64,000 nucleotides of DNA from Ruditapes philippinarum (lineage: Eukaryota). The notes beneath the pieces are model-generated. The model had not been told where the DNA came from. It did not search any database and saw only the letters and a list, made by a program, of their open reading frames with translations. Positions 15,463 through 54,200 of the stretch are shown here, in pieces; the stretch's first letter is position 1; every line of letters begins with the position of its first letter. Location of the stretch: contig NW_026859889.1 of the NCBI RefSeq assembly GCF_026571515.1, forward strand, positions 1 to 64,000. Reading direction: 5' to 3'. The position numbers were made by a program, and so were the translations under genes.

Positions 15463-15995
15463 AATCTTTGTTCAGAAAATGTATGAGTATGAAATAAAAA
15501 TCGTATCGTGACATAGTGAACCGTCGTATCTTTTCTACGGAATACGTGTCGTGGTAAACCAAATATCGTCAAACCTACACAAGTCAAAACGAAATTTATA
15601 GTTTTTCAAATCGTACGAACATTTTGGCATTTCTATAAACATATTTTTAAAGAGTTTTCCATGTAAAAATACATGAATTTATTTGACATATAAAGGAATG
15701 GCAACGATTATAGCGTAGTCACGTATCAATCGAACAAGATAGCAATACCACAAAAAGGCTTCCGTACATTAATGAGATAAGGTGTCCAGGTTTTAAGGCG
15801 AAGTGACCTTATTACGACTTGTTAACGTCTACCTCTATCGCTTAAAGGGAAATATACACAAAGTGGTAACATCCTTAATATATGGCCACTTATTATTAAA
15901 TATACGCTTAAAACTAAATCACATAAACAAATTAACCTATTATCGTTTGAAGAAAAATAAATGAATTGTATTTGATTCTGAAGAAAATTATTAAT

Positions 15996-19746: not shown

Positions 19747-22700
19747 TTATCTAATGAAAGTTGAAAAAGAAAAGAATTTATATTCGAAGTCTCCCTTGTT
19801 TGCACCATTTTCTTCTACAGTTATCTGTAAATACAAAATAAAACATCACATTATTTGACTACTTTTCTAAAATCTTTCTTCTATAACCAAGATTGTAAGG
19901 TACATACATGTATTGTCATCAGAACATATGTTTTAGTCTTTACTTATATTAAACAAGACATTTAAATACTTGGACTGGTTTTGAATAGCATGATAGTATT
20001 CTAGTTTGCTCAATTCTTATTCTTTGATAATGATTAAAACGAATGACAGCAGTTGTATTACCTTTGTATGTTTCCATAGAAACCGTCATTAGCTATTACT
20101 AAATATTCAAAGAGAGTTTCTATTAAGTGTAAAATCATCTAGAGTTACATATTCGTTACAAAAAAGTTCAAAACATCGTTCATCTGAGTATACAATACTT
20201 ACTTTGCTTAGTTCACAGTGTAGACCACTCTTTTTGTAGATTGTCAAAATACCACACTTGTCATCACCATCATCATCATCATCATCGTCTTCTTTTTCTT
20301 CATTTCCTTCGTCTTAATTTATAGATATACAAACGATTCTGTTCCGTTCTTCTGATACATTTACTTCATGATGCTCTGTAATAACTATTGATTCTATATC
20401 AACAACTGTTTCTTCTCCTTTTATTCTTATGCTTGTCTCATCTGGTATAAAGCCTACATTTGCATAAACTGATTCAATGCTTTTATTTGTTTTATATAAT
20501 TTTAAGTCTATAACTTTGTCATTTGATACTTTGTCTAAGACTACATTATTAGTATGTGGATCATTGTCTAATGCCCTTTCTTTCTCCACAAGATCTATTT
20601 TTCGCAGCTTTGTATCAGCGTTATCAGGAGAATCAGCGTTGATTTCATTTGTCTTTTGTCTACCAATTCTTCCTCCTAATTGTCTAATATCTTTATTACA
20701 ACTGTCGATATTTTGGATATTCACCTTTTCAACTTCTGAAATGAAGGCTTTGTCGTAATGTGCATTTTCTGCGAGTAAGCCATCTCTATCCTTAACAATT
20801 ATAATATTTTTCTCAATGGAGCCGGGCTGCTCTGAAAATGGAATATTATTTCTTGTTTGTGTTCTTGTATTGTTTCTTGTATCAGTCTGTTCCAGAAGTC
20901 TCTTATTGGTTTTTGTTTTTCCGCCTGTTTTGTCAATGCATCTTTACTAAACATCAGAGAGTCTTGCATTGACTTAACAAAATCTGCATCCCATTCCATG
21001 TCGTTTACATAAGTCAAATATGACTCAGTTGTTTGGAATCCAGTATTCAAACAATTCAAATATGCCCGACTAATACGATTACCTACTGCAGTATCAATTA
21101 AAATTGCTAGCATTTCACTTTGATAAGCTTTATCAATTGCTTTGAAAGCTTTTTTATCGTATGAAGTGGCGGCTAATGTTGCATTTAAACTTGATTAATA
21201 GCGTTTATAAAAATTCATGTCAGTATTCAAACTTGTTACAGTTGGGTCTTGAAAATCGTGCTTTGGTTCTGGTAACAAAATATTTCTGGTGTCTGATATA
21301 GAAATCATTTCCAAGACGACATGCATGCTATCAATTATACTGTTCACACCCTCGGATTTAGCCTGTCTTAACAGGAGTCCAGTTTTTGACAATCTTTTTG
21401 CAGGTTTCGATATTGTCTTACCATAAAATGAGTTAACATACCTAAGCAAGTATCTGTCAATATCTTGTCTATTTGAAATGTCTCCAATGAACTTATCTTT
21501 AACTTCGACCAAAGGCTTTCTTTATTCTTCAAGGTTCATTTCTATAGCACCCACATTTCTCGCGTCTCTTTTATAGATTCTTTTCATAAACTTCTGAGTA
21601 GCATGTTTGAATGATGTTTTGATTTCTTTCCAATCTTTAACATCAGGCTTCTCTATAAAGATTCCTTGTCCATTTCCAATACCAATATGTAAAACAACTC
21701 TGTCGAAAGTGGCGCTGATTGGAATAATTACATCATCATTGTTTGGACTTATGAGGATATCTAAAAACAAAAATATGTTTGCTTTATAAAAATGCATGAC
21801 AATGTAAACTCAAATATATCTGAGATTTAAAGTTAATGTGAAGGGTGGATAATCTAAATTCTGAAGAAAGAAACTTTTCATACAAACAAAGAAAAATTAA
21901 ATCACTGAAAATCGCAAATTCGCCTTATGTGCATATGTATAATTGCACTAGTAATGTGTATATACTAATTGTCATGAAGTACGGTCTCGTTGCTCTCCTC
22001 ATCGAAAAATACTTAACTCCCCTCTCTCGAACATCACGCCCTATATAGCTGGTGGATGGGGTACATCGCATTAACACAGTATTAATCATATGGAGACTTT
22101 CCAGCTATACTGGTTGAGGAAGACCTCAGGTGCCCTTCCGTGAAGTATTTCAGGCACTAACTGGTGCCTGAGTAGAAACACCGAAGTGGAAGAATACAAA
22201 GTCCCTGCGGTGAGGGACAAGTGTTTTGAAGTCAATACCACCGGACGTCCCATCTCCTGGGCTATGGCTTATTTACAGCAACCTCAGACAACTACAAATA
22301 CCTTTTCTTTCTTATGACTGTTTACATCAGGTGACCTTCTCCCTACCCCATATCCCAACTCCCACTATTAGAGCAGTTCAATGCAGCCATATATCTAGCA
22401 TATAACATGTCTCAGTTTAGTTTTCCAGTTCCCTAGTTTTACATCCCCCTCCCCTGCCCCCTCCCCAATTTTTTTTCTCGTTTATATCCTCTTTTAAACA
22501 ACTCTTTTAACCTTCTTGCGATTTTTGACATTTAGTATATCAATAACATTATAATAAACTTCATGACAACGGTGCCTATGGGCCTACTACACAGACACAT
22601 ACGGGTATCAAATATTTTCAGCACAATATTTGGATGAAGGTCACTTTTAATTACTTCATTCGTCTTCACCGATCTACTTTACTAGACACTATACAAAGTT

Positions 22701-26755: not shown

Positions 26756-27310
26756 GTTGTAATGCGAACCAAAACACATAATATTGTTTATATTGTAATA
26801 TGTTTATGGTTAAGAATTTAAGAGCAGACTTTACATACATGTAACTTGCATTTTGTATAAATTACGTTAAATTTGCCTTTAATACATGAACGTTGCTCTT
26901 TGTATTTAAAGGTGTTTTTTAAGGGTTTATAAATTAACTGGAAGAGTTACATGTATCATAAACTTTTATTGATCTAACTTGAGTTATTACATGTATAACT
27001 ATGAATCACAATCTGGCCATTTTAAGACTAATAAATACCAATAAATCCCTGTCATATTCGTTTATCTAAAATATCATTGCAGCCCTATTGCCAGTCCACC
27101 TGTACAGTACTTCAGTACTTTGATTCCTTTTTTGAAAGCAAAGTTAATGGGCACAGATGTCTATAACTAAGAGCTGACTAAGTGTCTGAAAGATGTTGTA
27201 CATCTAACTTTCATTTGGTATGAATCATGGTAAATTTGATTTACATGTACATTGCTCTTTGTATTTAGATTTAATTGTTTTTAATATTTGTGCAGGTAAC
27301 TGAAATAAAA

Positions 27311-30300
27311 ATGGAGATAATTGATGTTCCCTCCTACTCCATGCATCTACTAGAGCAGCTGAATCTTCTACGCCAAGATCAAATGTTCTGTGATGTCACA
27401 ATTGCCTGCCAAAACAGCACAATGTTAGTCCACCAGGTTGTTCTAGAGGCCGCCAGCCCATACTTTCATCAATGCATTGAAAAATCTGCATCTGACCAAT
27501 GCTGCATAGACTTTACTCGTTTTGATGAGAAATTGTTAGGAATTGTAATTGATTTCCTATATTCAAGTAAGTTAAAAGTTTCTAGGGATACAGTAGGAAA
27601 TGTTATGGAAATTTGTGATGAACTGCATCTACAGTCTGCAGTAGATGCTTGTAACTTCTTCATACAGTTCGGAAATCAGAAACAACACACGGAAAACGAT
27701 ACTGAAACAGATGTTATTGAAAATGAAACTGCAACAGGTACTGTTACTGACAATCCTGTAAGGAAAAAACGTAAAGCAGCAACCATGCATGAAGAGATTT
27801 CCCCAAAACTTAATGCAAAAGCCAAAAAGGTAGCCACTGATAAGCCTAAAAGAACAAGGAAAGCATACAAACCAAAACAAAGGAAAGCATCTTCCAGAAA
27901 GGTAGTACCTGTTAAGATAACTAAAGCAGCTGAGAAAAATGTGAAAGATGAATTCAATCTTGTTAAAGAAGAAGAAAATAATCTTAATAATAATGGTGAT
28001 GAAATGGATTCTAATGAAGTTGAAGAAACTGCTGAAGCTATTGTTAAGATAGAAAAAACTGGCTTTGAACCTGAAAATGTGCTGCAAGAAAATGAAGATA
28101 ATGTTAATGATATAGATGATGAGGATGATGATGAAGATTGTAATGATGATGATAGTGATACTGATGATTATGATAGTAATATTGTTGATGAGTCACAAAA
28201 TTCTTTGACCGCTGATGATGGTAATATAAAAAGAATTGATGCCGAAGGTAGAGTTTTGAAGAAAAAAGTTAGAAAGAAAAGAGATGATCCAACAGTAAAG
28301 AAATCCAAGAAGAGGAGAAGAAAACCTTTTCCATGTTCTATGTGTTCAAAAACTTTGACTAGCAAGAAGAGGCAAATTTTTCATGAGTACAGCAAGCATG
28401 GAACACCAATAGATTTCAAGAACATCACATTTGCTGTCAGCCCTTGCAGTGTTGAGGCAAGTTTGATTTCATTTATTTTCCTAATTAAATATAATTTGTA
28501 GTATGTACTTAAAGAAAGTTTGAGACATTTAGTTTTGTGAAATATATTCACAAAGTAATGTATTGCCTTTCTGGTTGATAAATATGAAAATTTATACATT
28601 TACATAATCAAACGCCTCCTGTGGCAGAGGGGTTTCCATCAATGGCTGAGACATAAAAATGCCTGGTTGATCATAAAAGGCAATTAAATTACCTCCAGCA
28701 GAAGAGGCGGTTTTGACCCCTGAGGTTGCTTTACTCATTTATAATTTGGCTCTCCTTTACCAATGACTTTTTTCATGTATTATTGACACTTACAGAAGAT
28801 CAGTGGTTCAACTTACGCAAACAAAAATCATTAATATGAATAATTAATAATGTAATATTTCATAAAGTTTGTTTTTTTTTGGTCAAGAAATATATAACTA
28901 TTGAGGTACATACTTCTATGTAAACATTATTTCATATTCAAATTATACATGATTTAATCATTTTTCTTTTTGCTTTACTTAAGCAATATTCACATTTATG
29001 TATTTTGTGCTAATGTTATTATGTTTTATGGTGATTTTGTCACATGCTTGTTCAGACTGCATGGTTCAGTGGCTACATAGTTATAATCCAATCCTTACAG
29101 GGTAAAATAAATTTGAATTTTAAGACCAGTCTCCATCTTCTGAGTTTTTATTGGTTGATCTACCAGACACAGTCTATAAATTTGACCAATAGATATGTAT
29201 TTAATTAATTGACTGGTTTTCAAATTCATTTCAAAATACAAATTTTTTCTCCTTAAAAAAAGTTTATGGTAATTATACAATTTCACAATAAATGCAGCCA
29301 GTTTACCATTTGGGGGAAACAGCAATTTTTTGATATTGGGATTGCTTCTTTGACATGTATATATGTACATATACATTGTACATGTACAAGAAGTAACTTT
29401 GTAGGGGAGAAGTCAGTTTACTGCTGTAGGGGCACCAAATTAAATTAAGAATCCATTTATAATTATAGGGCTGTAACTATGTAGCTGCTAACCCACACAA
29501 TCTCGACATGCATATGAAAAGTCGTCATGGTAATGCACGGCCACATATTTGTGAATTTTGTGGCAAAGCTTTTAAGTTACCGAACATTTTGGCGACCCAT
29601 CTCAACATTCACACTGGCTCAAAGTCGTGGAAGTGTGACTATTGTGGAGAAAGTTTTAACCAACAGAGTGGACTGCAAGTAAGTGTCATAATAATTAATT
29701 ACCTAAGATACGATTAAGATGAGTGCCTGTGAGCATTTTTGAATGTTTTTCGTCATATGTTTCTCTTTTGTGGAAATAGCATTTTGGGAATAAAATTATG
29801 TTGGTAATAGTCATAAGCAGACTGTAGCTGAAGGAGCACCCTTATTAGCTGGGCTTGTGATAGTAACTAAGGGAATGTCCCTGATTCCCTGGTCCTGTGA
29901 CAGTCACTAAAGGAATGTCCCTGATTCCCTAGTTTTGTGACAGTAACTTAAAAGAATCCTTGATTCCTTGGCTCTGTGCTTAAACTGAGGGAATGTCCAT
30001 GATTCCCTGGCCCTGTGACAGTAACTGAAGGAATGTCCCTGATTCCCTGGGACTGTGACAGTAACTAAAGGAATGTCCCTGATTCCCTGGGACTGTGACA
30101 GTAACTGAAGGAATGTCCCTGATTCCCTGGCCCTGTGACAGTTACTAAAGGAATGTCACTGATTCCCTCATTAAATAAAGTCGTTACTTACTTACTTACT
30201 TACCTGGGACTGTGACGATAACTGAAGGAATGTCCCTGATTACCTGGTCCTGTGACAGTAATTTAAGGAATGTCCCTGATTCCCTACTTTTGTGACAGTA

Positions 30301-33300
30301 ACTTAAAAGAATCCCTGATTCCTTGGCCCTGTGACAGTAACTGAAGGAATGTCCCTGATTTTCTGACCATGTGAGAGTAACAAAAGAAGTGTCCCAGATT
30401 CCCTGGGCCTATGACAGTAACTCAAGATGCCTATGACAGTAACTCAAGATATGTCTTATTCTCTGGTTCTGTGACAGAAACAAAAGGAGTAACCCTCATC
30501 CCTGGACCTGTGACAATAAAAAGGAATCCCTTATTCCCTGGCCCTGTCTTACTAAATCAGAATCAAATTCTGATTTTATTTATATTTCTGCTTGAAAATT
30601 ACATTCCAAAGAAACAAATTTATTTCATACAAACAGGGAATATTTACTATGTTTATTTGCTTTAAAAAAGATCATATACATTAAGTTTGTGAACACACGC
30701 TGAATGTTATTCAAATATCATGAATTTTTTTTTCAAAAATACTGTAACATTTTATTGATAACTCTTAATCGTGAAATGCCTTGTTTTATTGGTTGTAAGT
30801 TAATTGTATTAAAATGTTTGTGTACATGCAGTAAAACACTATTTCATCATTTCTATATTTAGGTACATGTAAAGCGGTATCACATGGGAGAGTCATCGTG
30901 GACAGAGATGTGTCACATGTGCTCGGAGAAATTTCTACAGAAAGCTGACCTGGCCTGGCATCTGTTTAAAGTTCATAAACAACCTCTGCCAGACAATTAT
31001 AAAATGTATGTTTAAAACAATTTTAGTTTCAAAATGATACAATGTACATGTATATAGGCATGCTCTAGCTATGGCGACCTCAATCTATAGAACCAGCTCA
31101 TGACTAACATTCAAACTACACAACCATGCACTGTCTGATACCTGAATGGGGGTGAATATGAATCTTGGCTGTGATTGGTTAATATTTATATTTGTAGTTA
31201 ATGCTTAGTTTACTATATTACTGCTGGTATAGACACATTATTGAATCAGTGGAGGTTCCATCACATCATATTAAAGGGAATTATAGAATTTGCAGTTGAC
31301 TACTTTTTTTTTACTATCACATCATATAACACACTATTTAGATAAAAAAAGTTTTGTTATGTTTTTAGCTCACCTGTCACAAAGTGACAGGGTGAGCTCT
31401 TGTGATCGCTTTTCGTCCGGCGTCCGTAAACTTTTACTTTAAATGACATCTCCTCATAAACCACTAGGCCAATTTCATCCAAACTTCACAGGAATGTTCC
31501 TTTGGTGGTCACCTTTAAAAATTGTTCAAAGAATTTAATTCCATGCAGAACTCTGGTTGCCATGGCAACCGAAAGAAAAAACTTTAAATATCTTCTTTTA
31601 AAAAACCCTAAGAGCTAGAGCTTAGATATTTGGCATAAAACATCTTCTAGTGAGTGTCTACCAAGTTTGTTCAAATAAAAGCCCTGGGGTCAAAAATTGG
31701 CCCCGCCCCAGGGGGTCATTGTTTTTCCCTATATGCATATAGTAAAAACTTAAAAAATCTTCTTTTAAAGAACTCAAAGAGCTAGAGCTAAGATATTTAG
31801 CATCAAACATGTTCTAATAGGTGTCTACCAAGTTTGTTCAAATAAAAGCCCTGGGGACAAAATTGGCCCAGCCCCAGGGGTCATTGATTTTCCTTATATG
31901 TGTATAGCAAAAACTTAAAAAATCTTCTTTGAAAAAACCCAAACAGACAGAGTTTAGATATTAAGCATGAAACATCTTTTAGTAAGTGTCTACAAAGTTT
32001 GTTCAAATAAAAGCCCTGGGGTCAAAACTGGCTCCGCCCCAGGGGTGTCATTGTTTTTAACTATATGTGTATAGTAAAAACTTAAAAAAATCTTCTTTTA
32101 AAAAGCCCAATGAGCTAGAGCTTAGATATTTAGCATGAACATCTTCTTATAGGTGTCTACCAAGTTTGTTCAAATAAAAGCCCTGGGGTCAAAATTGGCC
32201 CCGCCCCAGGGGGTCATTGATTTTCCCTATATGCATATAGTAAAAACTTAAAAAATCTTCTTTTAAAGAACTCAAAGAGCTAGAGCTAAGATATTTAGCA
32301 TCAAACATGTTCTAATAGGTGTCTACCAAGTTTGTTCAAATAAAAGCCCTGGGGTCAAAATTGGCCCCGCTCCCGGGGTCATTGATTTTCCTTTTATGTG
32401 TATAGCAAAAACTTAAAAAATCTTCTTTGAAAAAACCCAAATAGCTAGAGTTTAGATATTAAGCATGAAACATCTTCTAGTGAGTGTCTACAAAGTTTGT
32501 TCAAATAAAAGCCTTGGGGTCAAAATTGGCCCCGCCCCGGGGGTCATTGATTTTCCTTATATGTGTATATCAAAAACTTAAAATCTTCTTTGAAAAAACC
32601 CAAACAGCTAGAGTTTAGATATTAAGCATGAAACATCTTCTAGTGAGTGTCTACAAAGTTTGTTCAAATAAAAGCCCTGGGGTCAAAATTGGCCCCGCCC
32701 CAGGGGTGTCATTGTTTTTAACTATATGTGTATAGTAAAAACTTAAAAAAAATCTTCTTTTAAAAAGCCCAATGAGGTAGAGCTTAGATGTTTAGCATGA
32801 AAAATCTTCTTATGGGTGGGGGGGGGGGCTATATACTGGTGAGCGACCTCAGGGCCATCATGGCCCTCTTGTTTTTTTAAACAATTTAAAGAACCTACAC
32901 ATAGTAATCAAAAAAAAATTTTAAGGCTTTAAGAATTTAAGAGAACTTAAAACCTCATCATTCAAACCATAAGCTACACATACTTTCCTACTTAAGGCAT
33001 GAGGCAAAAGTGTAGTCGGACCTCTTTCATTATAATTGTTTTCTAGATCAAACCATCCAGCTAGTTTGCAGACGGTTTTTAGTTCTCCTACGGAACTAAC
33101 TGTACACATTCCATATTTACTACATTTAATTCATTTACCGATACTGGTATACGGTATATTGCCTTGGTTGATAGTGCCCACTTTTGACTGAAATAGTGCA
33201 TGATTGATCCAGTGTCTTTTTTGATTGGAAATCGGTAGCATCCAACAAATCAAAATACCGAATAGGGAGACTGTTTTCACTGGTAGTATCTGAGATATTG

Positions 33301-36300
33301 CTTAATCTAATAATCTAACAGAATGATGTAATGTTTAAAGGTGCTGTAATGCTCTGAATTAGATTTGGTATGACTTGTAGACAAAGTTACATTTTGAATA
33401 TCTTTATTTTTTTTTTTCAGGTATGTGTGTGATATATGTGGATTTAGTACCATGAAGTCTCAACAGTTAAAACAACATAGAGAGCGACATGATGGTAGGA
33501 ACTATTTTACCTGTTGTATCTTAACCCCTTGCAGTAGTAGGTTCCAATCCTTTTAGGGATATTTGAATTTTTTCGTTTATGCAAGCTGTCAAACTTGTTT
33601 AGTTTACTGGTTTCACAGCAGTATTGTGGCCTTGTGGCTGAGGGGATGCCTCTACCAGTTGAGGCATCAGAATTGCAGCCCGAGTTTAACCCTGTGTGAA
33701 AGCAAGAGGTAACTTAATGGGTTCGAATTATTGAAGTATATATATATATATATCTTTGCTCCAGCAGTTGGGGTTGTTTTGACCGTCACCCCTGATGTTG
33801 CTTCAAATTTGTAACAACCAAAGTTTGGCAAAATCATCTTTCCAGTTTGGCATAATATGGCCTAAACTGTGTTGGTTAGTGGTTGTACTCAGGTGATTGC
33901 TTGTGCCTGAAATAATGCACAGAAGGGCACATGAGGTTGTCCTCAACCGATAAAGCTGGAATGTTGCCACATGACCTATGCTGTGTGGTGTGACGTAAAA
34001 CCCAACAACAAAAAATATATTAATAATAATTCTTCCAACTTTGAAGTTTTCAATATATTACCTGATTTATTTTGAAGGTATAAAGAATTTCATCTGCTCA
34101 ATTTGCTCAAAAGGCTGCAGTACAAAGAGTGAACTTAGGAGACATGTTAGCTTTCATGGAGGTTAGTACAGTTTTAATATCATCTATTATAATGATAAAC
34201 ATTTTTGGCCGGGTTGCACTGGTGCAAATCCGGTTTATAATATGGTGAATGTCGGGCGGCGGGCAGGCAGGCGGGCGGGCGGGGAAAATATTTTCGTAAC
34301 AGTTTTCTCAGCAACTACTTGCAGGGCACTCGTTTGGCCATTTTTGGGGCCGAATATCGGCCCCATTCCCCTCTCAAAATCATATGGTTTTTTCCCCTAT
34401 TTCAGTAAAAAATTCCCCTCAAAAAAAAAAAAATTGTAGTGTTAATGTTTGATATTTAAGAAAAAGGTGATGTTTTGATTTCATACAAATAAAATATAGT
34501 TAACTTTCAATGGACTGAAAACTAAAAAACAGTAGTCAACAACGCTTATGTTAAAACCGAAAGTAGCAGGAAGTGTACAGAAGGGAGTTAACTCCCGTAA
34601 AATTATTGACAAAATTAATGTGGCAGATTATCATCGTAGGAGTTTACCTTATATTCAATTTGTTTAGAGAATATACATACATTGTCAAACTTCTGCTAGA
34701 AAATAAACAAATCTGTTTTAATTTCTGTCTGTTGTTGTTGGAAAAAACGTATTTCTCTTGCATTTTCGTACTCAAATATTTTCGTACCAATTATTTCCGT
34801 ACCCAGTTTTACAGTTTCATACAATTTCCTCTGAAACCAATACCTTTCTTAGAAAAGTCAAAAAGCTTTCTTGTTTGTTTTTATTTAATTCTTATTTCAG
34901 TTTTCATTGTTATAATTGTTTCATTCTAAAGAACAGACAGAAATATGTAGAAAATAGTTTAAGAACTGACCAGTGCAGATTGCAAAATAGTGTGATAAAT
35001 TTTTAACATTAGAAATAAAGAAAACATTAATGACTATAATAGAAAATAATTTTGCTGTGTTTCCATAACTTGGGTACAAGTTAACATACCCTTGCCTAGG
35101 AAAATCTGCCTTTCCAAAGCTTGTTGCACTGAATCAATATTTTTTGTACAAGTTTAAAAAAAAAACACAACAAAAGCAACTGTCAGTTTTAATTTTTTAT
35201 CATAAAAAAATGCATTATGCTTGTTATAGCTTTTAATATAACCCAGGCCCTTATGTTTTTCAGAATTTGCATTTTACCCCTCACTCTAGAATTTGAGTGG
35301 TATATTAACCCTTGGCCAAAAACATATATCTGGACCTCTGATTGATGTCTGAGTCAGTCAAGTGCAATAAGAAAACAATAAAGAAAACAGTGAGATAGCC
35401 TACTTCAAGAACAACTTCATGTTATATGTTTTATTTGTTAGGTCTATAGTAATAAATATACTAGCTATTGTAAGTAATGGTAGGAAATAGTGCCAAGAGT
35501 TAGTGTAAAACCTAAATTTAAAGAACTCATATATGACTTAAAATTCCCCTTTTTGTCTTAAAATGACGCAAAATTCCCCTTTCTGAGGGTATGGGTACCT
35601 GTCCCCAAAAGTTGTCTAGTGCCCTGACTTATCACAGCCTCTTGATATTTGGCATACAGCATAGACACATGGTCCCATACTGTGGGATTTAATTCTGGTC
35701 TGCAGCTCATCTACTTCCTGTTTATCCACTTAGTTAAATTAGTTAGATTTTTTGACATTAATGATCAATGGTAGGAAATTTTCGTAACAGTTTTCTCAGC
35801 AACTACTTATCACAGCCTCTTGATATTTGGCATACAGCATTGACACATGGTCCCATACCGTGGGATTTGATTTCAGGTCTGCAGCTCATCTACTTCCTGT
35901 TTATCCACTTAGTTAAATTAGTTAGATTTTTCGACATTAATGGTCAATGGTAGGAAATTTTCGTAACAGTTTTCTCAGCAACTACTTATCACAGCCTCTT
36001 GATATTTGGCATACAGCATTGACACATGGTCCCATACCGTGGGATTTGATTTCAGGTCTGTCGCTCATCCACTTCCTGTTTATCCACTTAGTTAAATTAG
36101 TTAAATTTTTCAATATTAATGGTCAATGGTAGGAAATTTTCATAACAGTTTTCTCAGCAACTACTTATCAAAGCCTCTTGATATTTGGCATACAGCATTG
36201 ACACATGGTCCCATACCGTTGGATTTGATTTCAGGTCTGTCGCTCATCCACTTCCTGTTTATCCACTTAGTTAAATTAGTTAAATTTTTCAATATTAATG

Positions 36301-39088
36301 GTCAATGGTAGGAAATTTTCATAACAGTTTTCTCAGCAACTACTTATCACAGCCTCTTGATATTTGGCATACAGCATTGACACATGGTCCCATACCGTGG
36401 GATTTGATTTCAGGTCTTTCGCTCATCCACTTCCTGTTCACATTAATGGTCAATGGTAGGAAATTTTCGTAACATTTTCTCAGAAACTACTAATCACAGC
36501 TTCTTGATATTTTGCATACAGCATTGACACAGTCATGGTCCCATACCGTGGGATTCGATTTTAGGCGTGTAGCTAATCCACTTCCTGTTTACCCACTGAA
36601 TTAAATTTTCAACATTAATGGGTCAATGGTAAAGTTTTTTCGTAACATCACAGCCTCATGATATTTGGTGTACAAATGCTCCGGCCTTTTCTGTCTTTGA
36701 CCCATTTTTTCTTAAATTCTGATGTCATGCAGTTACCGGGTGCAGTTTTGAGTTTAATTTTTGACTCTCAGTTTAAGATTCCGTATCACTGACTCCATGA
36801 CTGTATGTGAGCAGTCTCTGAGAAAGAACAGATTAATTCTGGCACAATGCCAATATTTATCGAGTCTGTTGAGTAATTTTTGTTGAAGACATAATGTTAT
36901 TAACCATTTTTGTTGCCATCCAGTGGTTGTTGTTATTCATATGGAAATATTTACAGTACCTTATTAATGAAAATATTGGTTCTCACAGAGCTATATTTAT
37001 ATAGAGAGAAAGCTATGACTCCATACACTTAAATTTATATGAGGGATTTATTATCCTGCAAGTTCACATTTTTGCTAGACTTTGCACGACAATGTTTGAC
37101 AAGACAAAATTTACCGAACTGTACGCAGCCATGTCATCTAAAATTTGTTACAAAAGAAGTTACAAAACAGAAGTCATGTTTAACAAATTATATAATGTAT
37201 AATTTCAGAGAAGAAATACAAGTGCAATTTTGAGGGATGTGCCTATGCCTGTACAGACAATATAGGTCTTGATAAACATATTAAACTTATGCATACTCAC
37301 AAGGTAAGTTGATGCTTATATTTCACACTTACTTATCTGAAAATATATACAATATATTGTGGTGGCAGTACTCATTGACCTGCCCAGTATTGGGTTTGGA
37401 ATAGTTCATTAATACTTCAAGATATGAGCCGCGTCATGACAAAACCAACGTTATGGGTTTGCGACCAGCATGGATCCAAATCAGCCTGTGCATCCGCGCA
37501 GTCTGATCAGGATCCATGCTGTTCGCTATCAGTTTCTCTACTTGTAATAGGGTTTTAAGCGAACAGCATGGATCCTGATCAGACTGCGCGGATGTGCAGG
37601 CTGATCTGGATCCATGCTGGTCGCAAACCCATTATGTTTGTTTTGTCATGGCGCGGCTCATATTATGGTGGAGAATATTAAAATTGATCAGCCCAGTTAG
37701 GCTGCAACGATGTCTAGGCTGGCATAGCTCTTTGTGTATTCACCTTACTTATTTCAGGACTGCCTGTCTCTTTCTGCCTATAGGTTTGAATTCTGCCTTT
37801 AATGTTAAAGTTTTTATTAGTTTACTTGAAAGTCACCATAGACTTTAACCATGCTGTGATTTTTCCTTAAAACTATGATGAGCACACTGTTTTGTCTTTC
37901 TTACTTTTATAGCAAGATCACTATTTATTTGATTATGCTTGTAACACGTTACAAATAAAGGGGCTGACGCATTATTGCATATGACAATAACATATACTAG
38001 CGTTTCAAAAATATTTAGAAAAATTGCTCTTATGCAGATTTACACATATGTTTTGGACTTAATATGTTCATTCCTACAGGCATAGACCAGAAACAAATTT
38101 TGACCATGTTCAAAATTTTTCAGTGTACACACCTGAATAAATTGTTTGTTATATTACAGCTGTATAGTCATATATGCTGGACATAAACTGAAAAAGAAAG
38201 ACTTAAAGTTGTTATACATACGTTGACATAGTTAACATATCCACACATACGTTTTTTACATGCCGGCTATACATCAGTTGTACATTACATACACGCTATT
38301 CATACGTTATCCATGAGAACCTTATGGACAGCATTCGAAAATGCTGTTCTTATGACACGAAACTGTTTGTGTAAGAACTTTTAAGGAATTTTTTCTTACA
38401 CAGTGTTTAAATTTGTTATTTGCGTATTATATTTATATTTGTATTTTGAAATTTTAGAAACTTATTTTATATAAATTTTCAGGATTTTAAGCCGTATGCC
38501 TGCCCGGTGTGTCAGTACAGGACTGGAGTTAAAGGAAACGTTGACAAACATATACGTACAGTTCACGACCTCATTGTTGTAACTAAACATACTGTCAATT
38601 TGAAAATGAAGTATTCCAATTTTGACTCGGGTGACGTCATTACCAAAGATGGCCAACTAATTTCCACAGCAAAGGAAAGGAAAGCCTTACAACAAGTTCC
38701 GACAATTGACAAGGAAATAGGTCAAGACGGGAATATGACGATGAACAATGCCAATAATCTTACGTATGCTGATTACAAAGTGAAAGAAACTGCCGATAAC
38801 ACTTACTCTTCAATAAAAAAATCGAAAAGGCATAAAAGTTACATGGATCCGCCCAATATTTCTGATCTTGATGACAAACATTCGATTCCGACAGTAGTAA
38901 ATGATCAAACTGACACATCAAAAATGGAGACGATAATTCATGATTTACCTCCTTTGTCCAATTATGTATACATCCATGGAGACCTTTCTCGTGCCCAAGA
39001 TCTCACAGTCTCGGGAATTAATCCAGCAGACGCAGGGTCGCTTTACAACATAGGAAATGCTGAAATGTACTTGCAGAATAAATATTAG
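27311..39088 (+). CDS. BTB/POZ domain + 9 C2H2 zinc-finger transcription factor (ZBTB-like), ~785 aa, 7 coding exons
   Basis: Exons 27311-28456 (GC donor), 29469-29678, 30863-31005, 33421-33494, 34078-34161, 37209-37303, 38483-39088 (2358 nt, all phases compatible). BTB motif FCDVTIACQNSTMLVHQVVLEAASPYF, acidic linker, basic NLS-like patches. Fingers CSMC, CSVEGC, CEFC, CDYC, CHMC, CDIC, CSIC, CNFEGC, CPVC. Confidence 0.93.
29855..30548. repeat. 40-bp minisatellite in ZBTB intron (~16 copies)
   Basis: Unit GTGACAGTAACTGAAGGAATGTCCCTGATTCCCTGGCCCT, head-to-tail, degenerating toward the 3' end. Confidence 0.92.
31366..32872 (+). mobile_element. HINE/Helentron-like element with internal ~166-bp tandem array, copy 1
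   Basis: 5' TTAGCTCACCTGTCACAAAGTGACAGGGTGAGC and 3' GGTGAGCG...AGGGCCATCATGGCCCT-CTTGTT hairpin. The unit anchor GCCCTGGGG occurs at 31681, 31848, 32013, 32180, 32346, 32511 and 32674. Confidence 0.88.
34205..36700 (+). mobile_element. HINE-like element with (GGCG)n head and 179-bp tandem array, interrupted by an insertion
   Basis: Head TTTGGCCGGGTTGCACTGGTGCAAATCCGG...GGGCGGCGGGCAGGCAGGCGGGCGGGCGG, then 179-bp units from 35627 to ~36660. Near-identical ORF-track hits at 35768, 35947 and 36126 mark the units. Confidence 0.8.
34322..35626. mobile_element. ~1.3-kb non-autonomous TIR transposon nested in the first 179-bp unit
   Basis: Termini CAGGGCACT...AGTGCCCTG. The host unit CAACTACTTATCACAGCC is split as ...CAACTACTT(G)[element]ACTTATCACAGCC. 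Subterminal ATTCCCCT motifs occur at both ends. Confidence 0.8.
37425..37660. mobile_element. Palindromic MITE, copy 2 (opposite orientation to copy 1)
   Basis: TA|TGAGCCGCGTCATGACAAAACC...TTTTGTCATGGCGCGGCTCA|TA. The loop is the reverse complement of the copy 1 loop. Confidence 0.9.
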
Positions 39089-39180: not shown

Positions 39181-40586
39181 TTAGCTCACCTGTCACTTTG
39201 TGACAGGGAAAGTGACAGGGTGAGCTTTTGTGATCACTTTTCGTCCGGCGTCCGGCCGTCCGTAAACTTTTACTTTAAATGACATCTCCTCATAAACCAC
39301 TAAGCCAATTTCAAACAAACTTCACAGGAATGTTCCTTTGGTGGTCACCTTTGAAAGTTGTTCAAAGAATTTAATTCCATGCAGAACTCTGGTTGCCATG
39401 GCAACCGAAAGAAAAAACTTTAAATATCTTCTTTTAAAAAACCCAAAGAGCTAGAGCTTAAATATTTGGCATGAAACATCTTCTATTGAGTGTCTATCAA
39501 GTTTGTTCAAATAAAAGCCCTGGGGTCAAAATTGGCCCTGCCCAAGGGGGTCATTGATTTTCCCTATATGCATATAGTAAAAACTTAAAAAATCTTCTTT
39601 TAAAAAACCCAAAGAGCTAGAGCTTAGATATTTGGCATGAAACATCTTCTATTGAGTGTCTATCAAGTTTGTTCAAATAAAAGCCCTGGGGTCAAAATTG
39701 GCCCCGCCCCAGGGGGTCATTGATTTTCCCTATATGCATATAGTAAAAACTTAAAAAATCTTCTTTTAAAAAACCCAAAGAGCTAGAGCTAAGATATTTA
39801 GCATGAAACATGTTCTAATAAGTGTTTACCAAGTTTGTTCAAATAAAAGCCCTGGGGTCAAAATTGACCCCGCCCCGGGGTCATTGATTTTCCCTATATG
39901 CATATAGTAAAAACTTAAAAAATCTTCTTTTAAAAAACCCAAAGAGCTAGAGCTAAGATATTTAGCATGAAACATGTTCTAAGGGTGTTTACCAAGTTTG
40001 TTCAAATAAAAGCCCTGGGGTCAAAATTGGCCCCGCCCCGGGGGTCATTGATTTTCCTTACATATGTATAGCAAAAACTTAAAAAAATCTTCTTTGAAAA
40101 AACCAAAATAGCTAGAGTTTACATATTAAGCATGAATTATCTTCTAGTGAGTGTCTACAAAGTTTGTTCAAATAAAAGCCCCGGGGTCAAAACTGGCCCC
40201 GCCCAAGGGGTGTCATTCTTTTTAACTATATGTGTATAGTAAAAACTTAAAAAATCTTCTTTTAAAAAACCCAAAAGAGCAAGAGCTTGGATGTTTAGCA
40301 TGAAATATCTTCTTATGGGTGTCTACCAAGTTTGTTCAAATAAAAGCCCTTGGGTGAAAATTGGCCCTGCCAGGGGGGAGGGGATGAGGAGGGGTGGGGG
40401 AAGGGAGGGAAAGGGGAAGGTCATTATTTTTCATTATACATGTGTAGTAAAAACTTAACATCATGAAACATCTTCTAATGGGTGTCTTCCAAGTTAGTTC
40501 AGATAAAATCCCTGGGGTTTAAACTGGCCCCGCTCCGGGGCCAGTTATACAGGTGAGCCACCTAAGGGCCATCATGTCCCTCTTGT
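39181..40586 (+). mobile_element. HINE/Helentron-like element with ~166-bp array, copy 2, just downstream of the ZBTB stop
   Basis: Same 5' and 3' ends as 31366-32872. Unit anchors at 39517, 39683, 39849, 40012, 40178 and 40346. Confidence 0.88.
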
Positions 40587-46263: not shown

Positions 46264-46323
46264 TATATAAGCTGGTAAGTTCTGAATGTAGTTACCAGAG
46301 GTCCACTGAACGGTGCATTTAAG
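46264..46323 (+). promoter_or_regulatory. TATA box and short non-coding exon 1 of the Gly-rich gene
   Basis: TATATAA at 46264-46270 and donor AAG|GTATGG at 46323/24. The next acceptor TTTTGCAG| at 46915 precedes the ATG at 46955. Confidence 0.6.
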
Positions 46324-46954
46324 GTATGGACACATATTTTTGTTATTTTATATACATGTATAATTTTTCATTTCTTTTTTCGTTTTTTTTTATTATTATT
46401 TTCTTCTTTTTTTCGATAACAAGAATTACTGCCATTTTCATTCTGTTTTATTGAGTTTTGAATGGTTTTTATTCTTTAAATATAAAAAATAGTTATTAAT
46501 GGTAAAAAAATCGACAAAAAAAATTACAAAAATATTGAAATCCTTAAGATAAAGTAGAGGTGCATTAAGTAGGGCCTATCTATAATTATTGTATTAAGTA
46601 GATTTTTTTTCAAATTGTATTTTTTGTTGTGAACGGTTAGCACAGCATTTTTTTCCTTTGATAGTTATTATTTTATAGTAAATATATTTAGAATACATTT
46701 ATTACACATTTTTTGTTTTCTTGTATAAACTTACATACTAAATAGCGTTAAAAAAGAGCACAGCTACAGTGCGCGGTTACTTGATTCGAAAACATTCACA
46801 TATATATATTCAACTCATCATTTTTCTTTCAAAAAAACGCCTCCGTATGGGAATTTTGCTTTGAAGTTTTATTTTTAATGGCGAAACTTAATAATATATG
46901 TATAATATTTTGCAGGATTTAGAGAGGTTTCACGGAGTGATACAATAAATAACA

Positions 46955-49601
46955 ATGGGTGTTTATGTGCTAATTTCTGTCGTAACAGTAGCTTGTTTCG
47001 TAATGGTCAAAGGTACGTGCATTTTATATTTTAAATTGTATTTAATTTTTGTTTATTTATTAACTTATTTTTAACCCTTAAACCTACCTTTGCCGCCGGT
47101 AAAGTCATACAAGGCTCCATACTGACGTTAGCTTAATTTTGATTTTTTTTATCTAACGCACTGTTCAAAATTCAAAAATAACGAATCAATTACACAAATC
47201 ATCATGAACCATTACGCAACGAAATAATGTACATAGAATGACCATCACCAGCATACGCTCGCCGGTTCATTTCATAATAATATAATAAATAATTTTTCAA
47301 GTTATACATGCACATTAATAATGTTGAGTTTACAAAAGAAAACTAAAGGTAAATAAATGTATTATTGTAATGTTTTACAACACATCGAGTTAACAAAATG
47401 ATAACAAAATTCATCTTACAGGTCACTTTCCGCCAAATTTTCTTGTATGTATTGCTCTTGTCCTTCGCCATATATTAAAAGAAAATATTGGAACATGCTT
47501 TTAAATATACATTGTAAATGTTCAAGCACTGCCTAACAAATTTTCGAGTTGATTTTATTGCGTAATCTTATTTGAGTTGATGCTAACCGCTAATTATTAA
47601 TAAAATTTGACAAACGAATATTTTGCATAATTTACTCCAAACATTCTAGTATTTACAGAATTATGTCCAAATGCACTGGCAACTATGGATGATTCTTTTT
47701 AGGTTATTTGTAAATGAATTACAAGTGTGTTTAAAAGTAATTCATTGCACGCTCTTGCAGGTTCCTTCGTAAATGGACGGTTTGTCAGCAATTATGCAGA
47801 TAATGGGTTTGACGACTCGGGGAGTTTTCTTGGAGGTATGGATTTTCTTTGGCTTTAAAAGTGCAAAAGTTGAAAGTAGATCTTAAGAAGGTATAACGTA
47901 ACTATTATAATAATCCGAAGTTTGACGGAAAGAGCCGGGAAGATGCGATTGCAATAAGTTGTGGAAAGGGAATCGGGGTGCTTTAATCGTATGCTTAATA
48001 CTTAGTCCGGGCGTCAAACTTTACATTACTTCTAATGTAATGCCTCTTCAGACTCAGTGGTTATTTATCAACAAGAAGGAGAAGAACGTTTATTTATCAC
48101 CTATACTGTTTATGCAGACAGTCAACTCAATAACAAATATGCAAGACTTAGTGTGCAAACTGTAAGTTAATTAAGAATTAAATAATTGCTATGCAACTTA
48201 TGTTGAACTTTTATTCTATTACAGGCGGTAGCGGAGGAATTGGAGGAGGAATTGGGGGTGGACTCTCTGGTGGTATGATAGGAGGTGGAATGAGCCATAA
48301 ATTCAGCGGAGGCTCTGGTATCGGTGGTGGTATCGGTGGAGGTATCGGTAGTGGTATCGGTAGCGGTATCGGTGGAGGTATTGGTGGAGGTATCGGTAGC
48401 GGTATCGGCGGAGGTATTGGTGGAATTCAACAAGGACTTGGAGGCGGTTTTGGTGGAATGCAAAAGGGATTTGGCGGTGGTATAGGCGGTATTGGCGGGA
48501 TCCAGCAAGGAATTGGTGGTGGATTAGGCGGTGTTGGTGGACTACAGCAAGGAATTGGCGGTGGATTCGGCGGAATGCATAAAGGATTTAGCGGTGGCAT
48601 TGGTGGAATGCAGCAAGGATTCGGTGGTATTGGAGGGCTTCAGCAAGGAATTGGCGGTGGCATCGGAGGAATGCATAAAGGATTTGGTGGCGGTATGGGT
48701 AGAATTGGTGGAATCCAACAAGGCTTTGGTGGTATTGGTGGGCTTCAGCAAGGAATTGGTGGTGGTTTGGGTGGAGGATTAGGTGGAATGCATAAAGGAT
48801 TCGGTGGTGGAATTGGTGGTATCGGTGGAATGCAGCAAGGATTATCTGGTAAGCTTACGCTGTGGTTTGTCTAGGTCTTAAGTTTTTTATTGGAAGTCTG
48901 CCAGTTCTTTCTACCCTCGGGAAAACTTATTTACAATTATTTACATGTCATATTCAAAACAACTTCAAGTTTAAAAAATTGAGGTTTTACGTAATCATTT
49001 GAAAATATTATTTTTATTTCAAATATTTATCTTTATATACAACTAATTTTCGAAATTGATTATATTTCTGCAAATAGGTGGCTTTATTGGCGGTCGACAC
49101 GGACAATTTGGCGGCGGACAAATGTCAGCAGGGCTCGGAGGATTTTCAATGGGAACTAGCAGTTTGGGCGGTATGGGTGGGATCATGGATGGCGGAAGAA
49201 GGTCATGGAGTAAGTAATAATGCTTTATCCTGTTTTGTTTTTTCTTGTTTTTTTTTTTCACTCCCCCCAAAGTTATCTCCCTTCTATCATTTGCAAATGG
49301 GGTAACTTAACTAGAAGGGAAGTAAACGTTGTATGCAGATATGATTTATTCCAGACTCTAACAAAGTTGACATGTAACCGGGGAATGACTTCAATTAATA
49401 CGGTATGATATTAAAACATAAACATGGAGTTGATAAAAATATACGGAATAAAGGTCAATATATTGTATATAAATCCTAATATTGTTCATTGTATATAAAA
49501 GTGTGCATTTGATTGTGAACAATTTTGTTATCTAGAACATGTAAACAACTTGCTTTGTTGGTTAAAATATTGTGTCACTTCTCTTTTCAGAAATGTACTG
49601 A
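46955..49601 (+). CDS. Secreted glycine-rich structural protein (abductin/shematrin-like composition), ~299 aa
   Basis: Exons 46955-47012 (signal peptide MGVYVLISVVTVACFVMVKG), 47761-47835, 48225-48848, 49078-49209, 49591-49601. All introns are phase 1 GT-AG (900 nt). Repeats GGIG, xQQG and M(H/Q)KGF. C-terminus GGRRSWKMY*, or RRSWSK* at 49217 if the last intron is retained. Confidence 0.85.
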
Positions 49602-51227
49602 GACTGAGAATAGAAAATTTGACTGCGAGCGATTCGCATTTTTGATTTTTGGTTCTGCGTGAAGTCACGTGACATTTGCAGACGGTTTTATGACGAAAGC
49701 GGCAGACGACATTTTTAAATGATAACAACATCGTGTATTGAATTGTTTTATGTTTATATACTTATTACTGTAAAAATGACAACACTTTATGTTATCATTC
49801 TGCTACATATTTGAATAAAGATAAATGCATTATATGTTTTACGTTTTTCGTTGTTTTTTTCCCTCATTCTTACCGTTGACACAGAGGCAAAAAGAAGCAA
49901 ATCTTTACGCCGAAAGAAATAATTCCGCATTCGAGATCTTAAATAACAAATGCTAGTCAATTTATTATCTTGTTTGACGCTGTTATATATAGATATGCCA
50001 CGTTTGTTTAAAGGCACATTATTCCTCAGAAATGAATATATTTTTCATTGTGTAGATAAAGTGAGTTGTTCATAATTGGTTAAAAGATGAGAGATAATCA
50101 TCAATCGAGCGCTGAATGTGGAATTCTTTGTCAGAAATGTAACATTGAATGTAAACAAAGTGGAGTTTTGACTTTCATACAAAGTACTAAATCAAAACAA
50201 CTGTACTAATTACTTCATTTAAGTTACATTGTCTATCATGCAATCCCAACTGCAAAGTGAAACATCCTAGTAGTCCTTTGCATAGCTTAAATTTTCAACA
50301 AAAATTGCATGAAATAGAACATGATAACATACCAGGATACGTTCAAACACAAGGTATTGCATGGTAATGCATGAATGCAATATTTTAAATTTCACAAAAC
50401 TGTAACCCTAGGGGGGTCGTAGTCGCCAGTATTTATCAGGATCGATGGTTTGGGCCTATTCATCTAACAGAAGATAACCGACATCACTGTACCCCATCTT
50501 GCAAGCCTATACCATTCAATGTGCATCCTGTCTTGCGATTACAAGCACGTGTTACGTAGTTTAATACCACAAATTTCAAATTTTAAGAAAAAATACTGGT
50601 GGAAGAACTCCATTATACAGATGCAGCATTCTATAGGCTGACCTTTCATAGGCAATTCATTGCTCAACCAGCATATTTATAGTAAAGTTTCAATTTTAAA
50701 GCCAACAGGAAATATGATAGACAGCTGTTGGTAAAATACTTTTCTTGAAGTAACTGGGATAATTTCAATGCCTTTCAGTACCAATGTGAGGAACAAGACT
50801 ATTAAAAGCAGCGGACAGGGGCTTACTTTCATACTACATGGTATCCTAAAGTGCAATGGGGCAATTAAGAGGCTATTATAATTATACTGATGTTATCAAC
50901 AAAATATGATTATACAGTGAAACCGAGAGAGCTGCTGTCTGTACACCTATAACCACCTTGCAAAAATAATATCAATTCTTCTTAAAGTAAGGTTTCACAA
51001 TTAACTCTATTTCTGGAGCATCACCTCTCAGTCACACCCAAAGTCTTTGTCTCTTCTAAAGTAATTTGCTCCTCAAAGGTTGTACCATATATTTGACATT
51101 ACAAAGTTTGTCTACTACCATCTTTTAATATAGCTTCCTTAAATAAAAATTAAAAATAAAATAAAAAGTTATGTATTTAAATAGTTTAATCGATTAACAA
51201 TACACCTATAATATAAAACAACATTAG

Positions 51228-54200
51228 TTATTTGGGTGGCCATTTCAATGACAGTTCTAAATGTTTAGATTCTGGTATCCATTCTTTCAATGCTGCCAAA
51301 AGATCTGAAACAAAAGACCAGAAAAGCTTATAAAATATGATATAATAATATGTATTCCAAAATATTACAGAACACATGTGAAGCCCTAAGAATAATTTGC
51401 AAATTAACTGTGTATTTCTCAGCTAGGTTCACACATTATGAGCATACAGTATAGCAAGGTACAAACTTATTTACAATCAAGGTAAAAAATTTACAGACAA
51501 TCTATAAACAAATAGCAGGTACAAACTTCATAAACAATCCATAAATATATAGCACATGGAACAAACTTTACAATCTATAAACAAATACCTGGTACCAACT
51601 TCATAAATAATCCATAAACAAAAGTATAGCACAAGTTTTACAGACAACCTATAAACAAATAGCAGGTGCCAAATGTATACACAATTTATGATATTTATCT
51701 ATTCCAACCAGACTCCAGTCACTTGGTTACTCAGTTTTACTATTTTTAAACTGGAAACCCTTAAACTTCTTATGGACTGGTCCAAATTTTTAAACAGGGC
51801 AACTCCATTTCACAAATTCAGGACAGTAAAGGTTACAGATAAAGTTACTCACAATCTGGTTGTTTCTTCCAAGTTTGAAGTAAAGTATCTTTAGAATCCA
51901 CTCTTTCTGAGATCAACAATTTTAATAATGTCTCTGTCCTCGGCTGAAGCCTGAAATACATATTATACACTTATTAGCCAACATATTATTTTTATATTAC
52001 TTTGTTTATTTGTCTTTAATGTTAATATATTGCTATATCTATATAAACTTAAATTTTCAAGCATTAAAAGACATATTACAAAACACAAAATTACATAGAC
52101 TTGTACTTTTATGCAAGAATAGTGCTAATGCACCTTTTTTTGAGCATCAATATATATGCTTTAAAAGCATCTCCTGTGGTTCTACAGATGTTAATGCATA
52201 AATAAAAGGTGAATAACCCAAAAAATCAACATGTCATTTTATTTGCCAAAAATGAATTTTCCATAAACACCTAACAAATATAAATCAAACAGCTTCTTAC
52301 CTTTCATTCATTTTCTTTTTTACAAATATATTTTTTTTATCAGTTTCATATATATCTATATAAAATCGTCACCTTAGTGCAATAATGGAATAAGTCCTTC
52401 TAAATTTAATTGGAGTTAATCAGATACTGCACAAAGGTGATGATAGGAAGAAATAATTCATACTTTGCCCATGTTTTAATCATTGTGGCAGGTGGGGACA
52501 ACAGGTCAGGAGTGAATTTTTTCAGTTCTGCTATAACTTCTCCCTCGAGCAGAAATCTTGCAAACCACTTCATTTTCTCTATACCCCTTGGATATTCCAG
52601 TTCCACTGGAGTAATCGGCCAGGCTCTGTTACCAAATGTTCCAGACATGTGGCACATGACCTGAAATATAAACATTGACCCTAAATCTAAACAAAATTCG
52701 TGAATTGTGCAAAAAGTTCCAACACTATTGTCATAAATCAATTAAAAGATTCTGTTTTAATTTAGCTTTAAATACCTTATTCCAAACCCATTCAATAATA
52801 GATTTTCAAAAAGTATCCTAAAGAATAAAACATATTCTGAGATAAACTTTGAAAGGTCAAAAAAAGACTTTAACATATCACCAGTTTGACCATAACACAT
52901 GACAAAGATGCATCTTTTATGCGTCTTTTTTTTTTTTTAAAAACAATTACTTGTATTCCTATTGTAATTGAGAAAACATAAAACAACTGTTACCAATGAT
53001 GCCAAAGTTATGATCAAGAAAACCCTCTGTCAAAAAAATAATTCCTCAGGTGTAACAATTAAATGATGTGAAAATAGTACTCACTTGACCTTTGACCTTA
53101 TCATATCTTGGTGGTGGTTCTTCCATTGGCTTAGAGAGGGTCACATGACTTTCAGCAAACAAGGGCAACCACTCTGGCTCAATTGAAGTGATACCTGAAA
53201 TATAAACATCATGTTTGAAATTGAATGTCTTTGCTATATTTAATTTATAAAGCAAATTCTAGTTTTTCAATGTCTATATTTCAATCTCATTTCTTGTTTG
53301 GTTTCACAGCCAGTTTCTTCGAGTATTTCTTTGGAAAAATCTCTACATCATATTTTTTAATGTTTGCTTTTATGACAGTCTTTCAATTTAAAAAAAAAAC
53401 AACATTTTCTTGCTGGTCCCTTCATTCTTATTCTTTATTTTTACCATATATAGCTTTACAGGTAATTACCAATTTCTGTATAAGTAACAGATTACTAGTT
53501 TCACATGACTTAAGAATCAGCGGCGAGAGACAAATGTTCATTAGGCTCAATGTGATAGAAAAATTCTGCCTGGCAAGGGGATCAAATCAGCTACCCCTGG
53601 GTTAATAATCTGATAATTTCACTATTGAGTTAAGCTGGCGGACCATGTTCCTATTAAACATTGCATAAAGCTTTCCAGATTTTGTATTTCATTCATATAA
53701 ACTCTCAAGATAACAAATCGCCTCTATGTTTGGACACTTAGGTCATAATTTGAACAGTTTTGTTAGAGGTTTAAAATATAAACTTTACCTTTCATATATA
53801 ATTTGGAAGTTTCTTCTATATGTTGATAAACAACAAATTCTGGTCTTTCTCGGTAAAGAACTGATGTTGGATGTATAAATACTGGCTCTTCTAAGTTTGG
53901 ACACTGCAAAACATAAATGGAACCGATAATAAAAACTATCACTACCCCTTGGTGGTTGTTTAAACTGTTTCATATTTACCAAACTCATTTTATTACTTAT
54001 ATTACAACCATAAATTAAATCCCTTTAGAAAATTTATATAGGATTTTAGGTTTAAAATTCAAACTGAGAAGCTCATATGCCATATTTCTTGTTTTACTTG
54101 TTTCCCCTACCTTGCACATTTAAAAGGCATAAGTGATTCAAAGTTCCATTTAACACTGAATAAGACGATTACCTGGTAAGCATTTTTAAGTTTTTTAGCA

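Follow-up and report, generated by a model that had tools for sequence, protein, structure and literature searches.

A spliced, expressed gene of Ruditapes philippinarum encoding a probably secreted, silk-like glycine-rich protein

The gene, its surroundings and its second haplotype

A gene for a glycine-rich protein lies on the plus strand of the window, i.e. the whole stretch of Ruditapes philippinarum DNA that was analysed (contig NW_026859889.1, 64,000 nucleotides). It comprises five coding exons, the third of which spans 48225-48848, and all four introns are in phase 1 and have GT-AG borders (Table 1). The coding sequence of 900 nucleotides encodes 299 amino acids followed by a stop codon, and its start and end coincide with the region 46955..49601 marked out in a preliminary description of this DNA. 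In run X1, read depth amounts to approximately 390-4600 in bins overlapping the exons and the 3' UTR vs 0-65 in intron-only bins, and three of the four coding splice joints are present. The joint between exons 2 and 3 (47835/48225) is listed as GT..AG in the X1 contigs, with exon 2 covered, while loose ends lead from exon 3 into exon 4 and from exon 4 into exon 5, the latter confirming the K-M-Y ending of the protein. The joint of exons 1 and 2 is outside the X1 coverage and was inferred from splice signals and reading frame. The gene is real, spliced, expressed and present at a single locus. Exon bins had a depth of 0 in the raw RNA runs X8 (12.9 million reads, 4 in 100 of the run; one bin at 0.61) and X10 (7.4 million reads, 6 in 100), both without tissue label and with zero depth uncalibrated by a control gene, which suggests restricted expression. 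Run X7 behaved like DNA, exhibiting flat depth and contigs that span introns. This read evidence is drawn from four of 24 runs, and parts of the stretch are present in seven rows from four studies.

Table 1. Features of the glycine-rich gene in the window
Feature	Position	Strand	Evidence
TATA-like box	46264..46270	+	sequence; inferred promoter element
Probable 5' non-coding exon, GT donor at its end	46295..46323, start approximate	+	inferred from TATA distance, donor 46324 and acceptor 46915
Coding exon 1: 5' UTR, ATG at 46955, predicted signal peptide (residues 1-19)	46916..47012	+	sequence, hydropathy
Coding exon 2: predicted cleavage after Gly20, acidic aromatic N-segment, Tyr31, D-x-G-F-D-D-x-G-x-F-L-G-G (residues 33-45)	47761..47835	+	sequence; X1 contig
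Coding exon 3, first part: Gly/Ile/Ser block (residues 45-111), 61% Gly	48225..48424	+	sequence; 12-nt and 36-nt tandem periods
Coding exon 3, second part: 12-unit array (residues 112-252), 52% Gly	48425..48848	+	sequence; motifs kept in second haplotype
Coding exon 4: Gly/Met/Ser segment, start of basic tail (GGRRSW)	49078..49209	+	both joints are loose ends in X1
Exon 5, coding part: K-M-Y-stop	49591..49601	+	joint with exon 4 seen in X1
3' UTR, AATAAA at 49814-49819	49602..49835, end approximate	+	X1 contig 49618-49818; depth 0 in bin 49868-49951

The neighbouring genes recognised by Pfam (carboxylesterase, fucosyltransferase, BTB-zinc finger and DHX37) are unrelated to the Gly-rich gene and form no gene cluster with it, and the window holds no second long Gly-rich frame. 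Exons of an Abhydrolase_3 (alpha/beta hydrolase) gene occupy 2509-4603 (plus strand), and a single-exon glycosyltransferase family 10 gene (fucosyltransferase) with hydrophobic segments at both ends is located at 14023-15471 (minus strand). A BTB and C2H2 zinc-finger gene extends over 27275-39088 (plus strand), its only match among longer proteins being a ZBTB24-like protein of Mercenaria mercenaria (59%), in keeping with a venerid-type clam, and a weak match to the DHX37 C-terminal domain is found at 52406-52741 (minus strand). At 8992-9360 (minus strand) a frame with only a weak, unrelated Pfam match has a signal-peptide-like start followed by a small Cys-rich stretch, similar to the motif at the N-terminus of IGFBP/perlustrin-type proteins. 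The interval 20314-21809 (minus strand) contains four frames free of stop codons (95-209 codons), three of them directly abutting, which match no Pfam family above the cut-off and are possibly a decayed gene or exons. Elsewhere in the genome (L012; G000:C4124, near 70374, minus strand), a short frame resembling an exon contains acidic motifs and motifs of the FGDF type; it is unrelated to the Gly-rich gene and reminiscent of AP-1 adaptor-binding proteins. Two tandem arrays with a period of 165-166 bp lie in the window (31577-32818 and 39413-40378); the second haplotype carries a similar one, inverted and located elsewhere (L008, approximately 1937-3785), which suggests a mobile satellite-bearing element.

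A second copy of the Gly-rich gene on contig C2754 is collinear over approximately 27 kb, with introns diverged by 2-17%, and hence it was read as the other haplotype, its interpretation as a paralogue being rejected. Across 47013-49590 of the window, compared with L002, divergence is about 2% in introns 1-2 and steps up to 13-17% in introns 3-4, with 12% in silent coding positions. Comparison of the two coding sequences revealed 24 silently changed codons, 15 codons with amino acid changes, one of these in coding exon 1, and one 4-residue gap. The protein is under constraint between the haplotypes (pN 0.025 vs pS 0.121, Fisher p 1.6e-7), and all 12 repeat motifs are identical, as none of the 15 amino acid changes falls into the 52 motif codons (p 0.05). 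Paralogue searches of the genome contigs with exon 3, exon 4, the 3' UTR and the pattern GFDD-x-G-(x)-FLG left only the gene's own locus and the C2754 haplotype, a third exon-3 match (L003, E 5e-4) being rejected as a minisatellite. The shorter pattern DNGFDD occurs 19 times in the genome vs two matches for a control; the 17 other matches were rejected as relatives, since no Gly-rich frame occurs within approximately 5 kb of them and many are situated in repeats of the GAT type.

Composition of the protein and order of its repeat array

The whole protein contains Gly 46.5%, Ile 10.4%, Ser 6.7%, Gln 6.4% (19 residues), Phe 5.7% and Met 5.4%, with no Pro and no Glu. Its N-terminus is hydrophobic (mean Kyte-Doolittle value of 2.18 over residues 1-19) and the predicted cleavage between V-K-G and S fits the -3/-1 rule, both by script, and hence the protein is probably secreted. 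The predicted mature chain of 279 residues (25 kDa) is basic, with a calculated pI of 10.4, and contains Gly 49%, Ile 11%, Gln 7% and Met 5.0%, so that, with Pro absent, Gly and Pro together make up 49% and polar and charged residues 23%. Its only Tyr residues are Tyr31 and Tyr299. Digestion with trypsin is predicted to give mostly long peptides of 24-55 residues. All the elements listed in the preliminary description are present, the signal peptide as a prediction: the short acidic head with three Asp in the segment NYADNGFDDSG, the GGIG/GSGIG block of residues 45-111, eight xQQG and four M(H/Q)KGF motifs, and the basic, Tyr-ended tail RRSWKMY.

From start to end, the 12 units run Q K Q Q K Q Q K Q Q K Q, a period-three arrangement found in three of the 495 possible orderings. 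At the DNA level, units are more alike at lags 3 and 6 (identities of 0.83 and 0.815, respectively) than at lags 1, 2, 4 and 5 (0.72-0.73), and TRF reports a tandem period of approximately 96-101 nt. Cutting the array into modules gives similar likeness in each phase (QKQ 77-89%, KQQ 81-85%, QQK 84-85%), and hence the four [QQG-KGF-QQG] modules proposed earlier are one of three equally good parses; the periodic order itself is beyond chance. Splitting the Q units into those before and those after a K unit ranks fourth among 70 partitions. The array is a single 10-15-residue unit in two variants, and its four-module boundary is arbitrary. All 12 units share the succession of a hydrophobic residue, a polar pair, Gly and a hydrophobic residue, followed by GG or GGG spacers. 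Over residues 77-252, the pieces between hydrophobic residues are GG (17), GGG (14), QQG (8), GSG (3), HKG (3) and five others.

Over residues 109-252, all 40 spacings from one hydrophobic residue to the next are 3 or 4, with a peak period of 3.545 that is matched by seven of 5000 spacing shuffles. Together with a single-sequence AlphaFold prediction of exon 3 alone, which is helical over the array (pLDDT 55-72 by block), and with the basic character of the mature chain, this would fit a long amphipathic helix of the glycine-zipper type, forming bundles or covering a lipid or hydrophobic surface, or else a cationic Gly-rich antimicrobial protein. We consider these readings very improbable. The same peak is reached by 324 of 3000 shuffles of unit order, and hence the helix-like phase coherence arises mostly from the unit grammar and was rejected as independent evidence. 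The mean hydrophobic moment is only 0.27, the AlphaFold model has a pTM of 0.26, the five models average 35-59 pLDDT, and a trimer prediction scored 0.00, which counts neither way. A Gly content of 52% disfavours a helix, and in the second haplotype two hydrophobic positions are occupied by Arg and Ala, respectively (L116R, V148A). Because of this Gly content, the hydrophobic-to-Arg change and the unreliable model, the chain is read as disordered or polyproline II-like, and it is predicted to be largely disordered. Abductin peptides are likewise reported as disordered or polyproline II-like in the available part of one study (PMC12571646).

Likeness to ligament and shell proteins

Homology searches used single exons as queries, and low complexity weakens all of them. 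Exon 3 found no match at E <= 1e-5 among 7985 candidates of 113-363 amino acids from a set of 5.8 billion proteins, and residues 66-207 found none at E <= 1 among 7994 candidates of 364-2000 amino acids from the same set. Against 1.84 billion representatives, exon 3 gave 11 matches (E 3.8e-10 to 2.9e-4), the seven inspected being unrelated repeats. No Pfam family was assigned to exons 3 and 4, and two attempts with the ESM Atlas gave no usable match. In the accessible parts of the peptide tables of PMC5854119 (apart from one unrelated GFDD) and of the PMC5105077 supplement, the protein's own motifs are absent. The protein is apparently undescribed, as judged from literature searched by subject and, for its own motifs, from supplements only, with a closer relative possible outside those sources; likewise, no identity to an already characterised protein, which the preliminary description had named as decisive against novelty, was found in the databases searched.

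The preliminary description saw in this protein a mixture of the abductin and shematrin designs, and each is retained only in part. Abductin of Argopecten irradians, as described in the accessible text of two reports, is a protein of 116 residues with a signal peptide, 58% Gly, 14 Met and almost no Pro, built of GG/GGG blocks split by single residues with the repeat GGFGGMGGGX and Tyr at its ends (PMC9999432; PMC13052691), its cross-links being stated as unknown (PMC9999432). The clam protein shares with it the di- and tri-Gly blocks broken by single residues, the absence of Pro, a predicted signal peptide, a few Lys residues and Tyr at both ends of the mature chain. GGFGGM occurs twice and GG[FILMV]GGM six times, with Met and Lys close together in each, and the Gly plus Pro content falls inside the 45-60% range given for entropic elastomers. 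These features argue for an abductin-like hinge-ligament rubber that the mantle isthmus would secrete, its randomly coiled chains forming a network with cross-links at the end Tyr and internal Lys residues. Such a ligament elastomer is the main rival of the shell-framework reading developed below, and we regard it as rather unlikely. Both GGFGGM copies are followed by (Q/H)KG and never by GGG, so that the complete GGFGGMGGGX decamer is absent, and the mature chain differs from abductin in length (279 vs 116 residues), Met (5% vs approximately 12%), Gly (49% vs 58%), polar plus charged residues (23% vs 13%), its acidic head and the prominence of Ile and Gln. No abductin match was obtained at E <= 1e-5 among the 113-363 amino acid candidates, a result limited by HMMER's discounting of low complexity and by the unconfirmed presence of abductin among these candidates. 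In Pinctada, acidic and Met/Gln-rich regions are described for shell layers and as absent from the ligament proteins covered in the part of the report available (PMC7591529). With its acidic head and 19 Gln, the clam protein leans towards the shell side of this contrast.

Shematrins are characterised by GnY repeats (n = 2-3) and the C-terminal signatures RKKKY, RRKKY, RRRKY, IRRKK or PRKKY (PMC3896809; bioRxiv 10.1101/696732), and basic Tyr-ended tails are named there as a mark of shematrins and KRMPs (PMC3896809). With these Pinctada proteins and the shematrin-like proteins of Dreissena, insofar as they are described in these sources, the clam protein shares its predicted secretion, Gly richness and a short basic tail ending in Tyr. 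It contains no G{2,3}Y match, its tail RRSWKMY corresponds to none of the five signatures and, unlike shematrins and KRMPs, it has no Lys/Trp head; hence it resembles a shematrin at its end only. What stands of the earlier proposal of a molluscan elastomeric or shell-matrix protein is a real, molluscan, probably secreted structural protein with an abductin-like Gly grammar, and not the two designs as they were stated.

The closest resemblance and best lead, a suggestive one that the preliminary description lacks, is to two shell-matrix proteins of a heterodont clam. Tcr_83017 and Tcr_618259 were identified by mass spectrometry in shells of Tridacna crocea analysed after removal of the periostracum, mainly in the acid-insoluble matrix, with 32 and 29 peptides of Tcr_83017 in the insoluble vs 5 and 6 in the soluble matrix (PMC8217771). 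As far as its sequence is given, Tcr_83017 has in common with the clam protein a signal peptide, an acidic aromatic head, a Gly-rich body and a basic Tyr end, and the head motif D-x-G-F-D-D-x-G-(x)-F-L-G-G is found in both. Matched by eye, the Tcr_83017 segment DGGFDDLGFLGG and the clam segment DNGFDDSGSFLGG exhibit 10 identities with one gap. Tcr_618259, in turn, resembles the Gly/Ile block through its GGGIGGGIGG and GGIGG runs, a GGI/GGGI grammar. Unlike the clam protein, both are devoid of QQG and (H/Q)KGF units in the sequence available, and Tcr_83017 differs further in its much smaller length and its high content of Arg, Phe and Pro. The number of matches expected by chance for the 24-residue head against approximately 15,000 residues ranges roughly from 0.0001 to 1.4 depending on background composition, and reaches up to 17 for the whole chain. 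Since the motif is short and read by eye and this estimate is wide, the Tridacna likeness is suggestive and possibly convergent.

Silk-like structural proteins (SLSPs) are lineage-restricted proteins defined by a signal peptide, at least 25% Gly per 80-residue window and no membrane segment; in the accessible text of the same source, they are said to have arisen independently in many lineages and to serve many materials, and both abalone proteins predicted as SLSPs to be mantle-restricted (PMC4944945). In the clam protein, hydropathy and the -3/-1 rule predict the signal peptide, Gly amounts to 45-60% in all such windows, and the highest 19-residue hydropathy of the mature chain is 0.87 by script, consistent with no membrane segment. 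By these sequence-based measures, it is a silk-like structural protein as a class. It differs from the class in its own repeat alphabet of xQQG and M(H/Q)KGF in period-three order, which was not found elsewhere in the searches made.

A possible framework protein and its proposed cross-linking

The best explanation, held with about even confidence, is that of a lineage-specific silk-like protein, likely mantle-made, that forms part of the insoluble organic framework in shell or periostracum. It is suggested by the Tridacna insoluble-matrix likeness, the SLSP features, the apparently restricted expression, the constraint between haplotypes and the basic Tyr-ended tail. Counting against it, two Tyr are few for a tanned or chitin-binding shell protein, and abductin, too, would agree with the Gly grammar, the missing Pro and the Tyr at both ends. 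Another secretion, namely juvenile byssus or foot gland, larval shell, mucus or egg coat, would agree with the zero depth in X8 and X10, uncalibrated as it is, and with the range of materials that silk-like proteins serve. We judge it improbable, as the resemblances found are to shell and ligament proteins only and the low Tyr content counts against a DOPA adhesive.

In a shell framework, cleavage of the signal peptide would yield a 279-residue basic sticker-and-spacer polymer, in which single Ile, Leu, Phe or Met residues at every third or fourth position, spaced by GG, GGG, QQG and (H/Q)KG, might make the chains associate with one another as a hydrophobic gel or film, to which the Gln pairs would contribute hydrogen bonds. 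The acidic head with its three Asp could attach either to mineral or to the following chain at its basic tail. Hardening of this film is wholly conjectural and would proceed by oxidation, with tyrosinase/quinone or dityrosine chemistry linking the chains at the two terminal Tyr and at Lys and His, which are regularly spaced; quinones are described as adding to Lys and His, and a tyrosinase is among the Tridacna shell proteins (PMC8217771). Tandem duplication of a three-unit block may have generated the period-three order, placing one Lys per 32-39 residues.

A role of His in pH- or metal-dependent assembly, as proposed in the preliminary description, is not borne out. The preCol-end and squid-beak-type proteins, whose assembly is metal-dependent or pH-switched through His, carry His-rich clusters; no such cluster is formed by the five His among the 279 residues of the mature chain (positions 69, 163, 195, 234 and 260), none of which are adjacent and which lie 26-94 residues apart. 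The second chemistry proposed there has the Gln-Gln and Lys units act as transglutaminase donors and acceptors. With the two kinds of unit in a 2:1 ratio, it would give an isopeptide network in shell, ligament or other secretion, and it has a precedent in loricrin, a Gly-rich protein cross-linked through Gln and Lys. The 17 Gln and four Lys exposed in the Gly-rich array, the constancy of motif cores between haplotypes against varying flanks, and at least one Transglut_core match in the genome speak for it. Yet the motif conservation is marginal and does not tell one chemistry from another, transglutaminase genes occur in animals generally, and the literature search by title or abstract opening found no report of transglutaminase in shell formation. 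The enzymes named in the accessible part of the Tridacna shell proteome are two, tyrosinase and a glycoside hydrolase (PMC8217771). We judge transglutaminase cross-linking improbable. More novel still, and very improbable, is a shell or ligament rubber that works as a cross-linking ruler, with two Gln-Gln donor units per Lys acceptor unit and a Lys every 32-39 residues, transglutaminase-cured and not quinone-tanned; through the acidic GFDD head common to both, it and Tcr_83017 would make up a heterodont family so far unrecognised. If true, it would represent an isopeptide-linked molluscan exoskeletal elastomer of fixed mesh size.

Since lineage-specific Gly-rich repeat proteins are routine in mollusc shells, one more such protein is modest news. 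If it were a ligament protein, it would be a venerid counterpart to scallop abductin, and if it were transglutaminase-cured, it would introduce a new chemistry for shell or ligament. Being clean, short (25 kDa), expressed and constrained, it makes an easy test object, both for the cross-linking of abductin-type proteins and for the role of Gly-rich insoluble proteins in heterodont shells.
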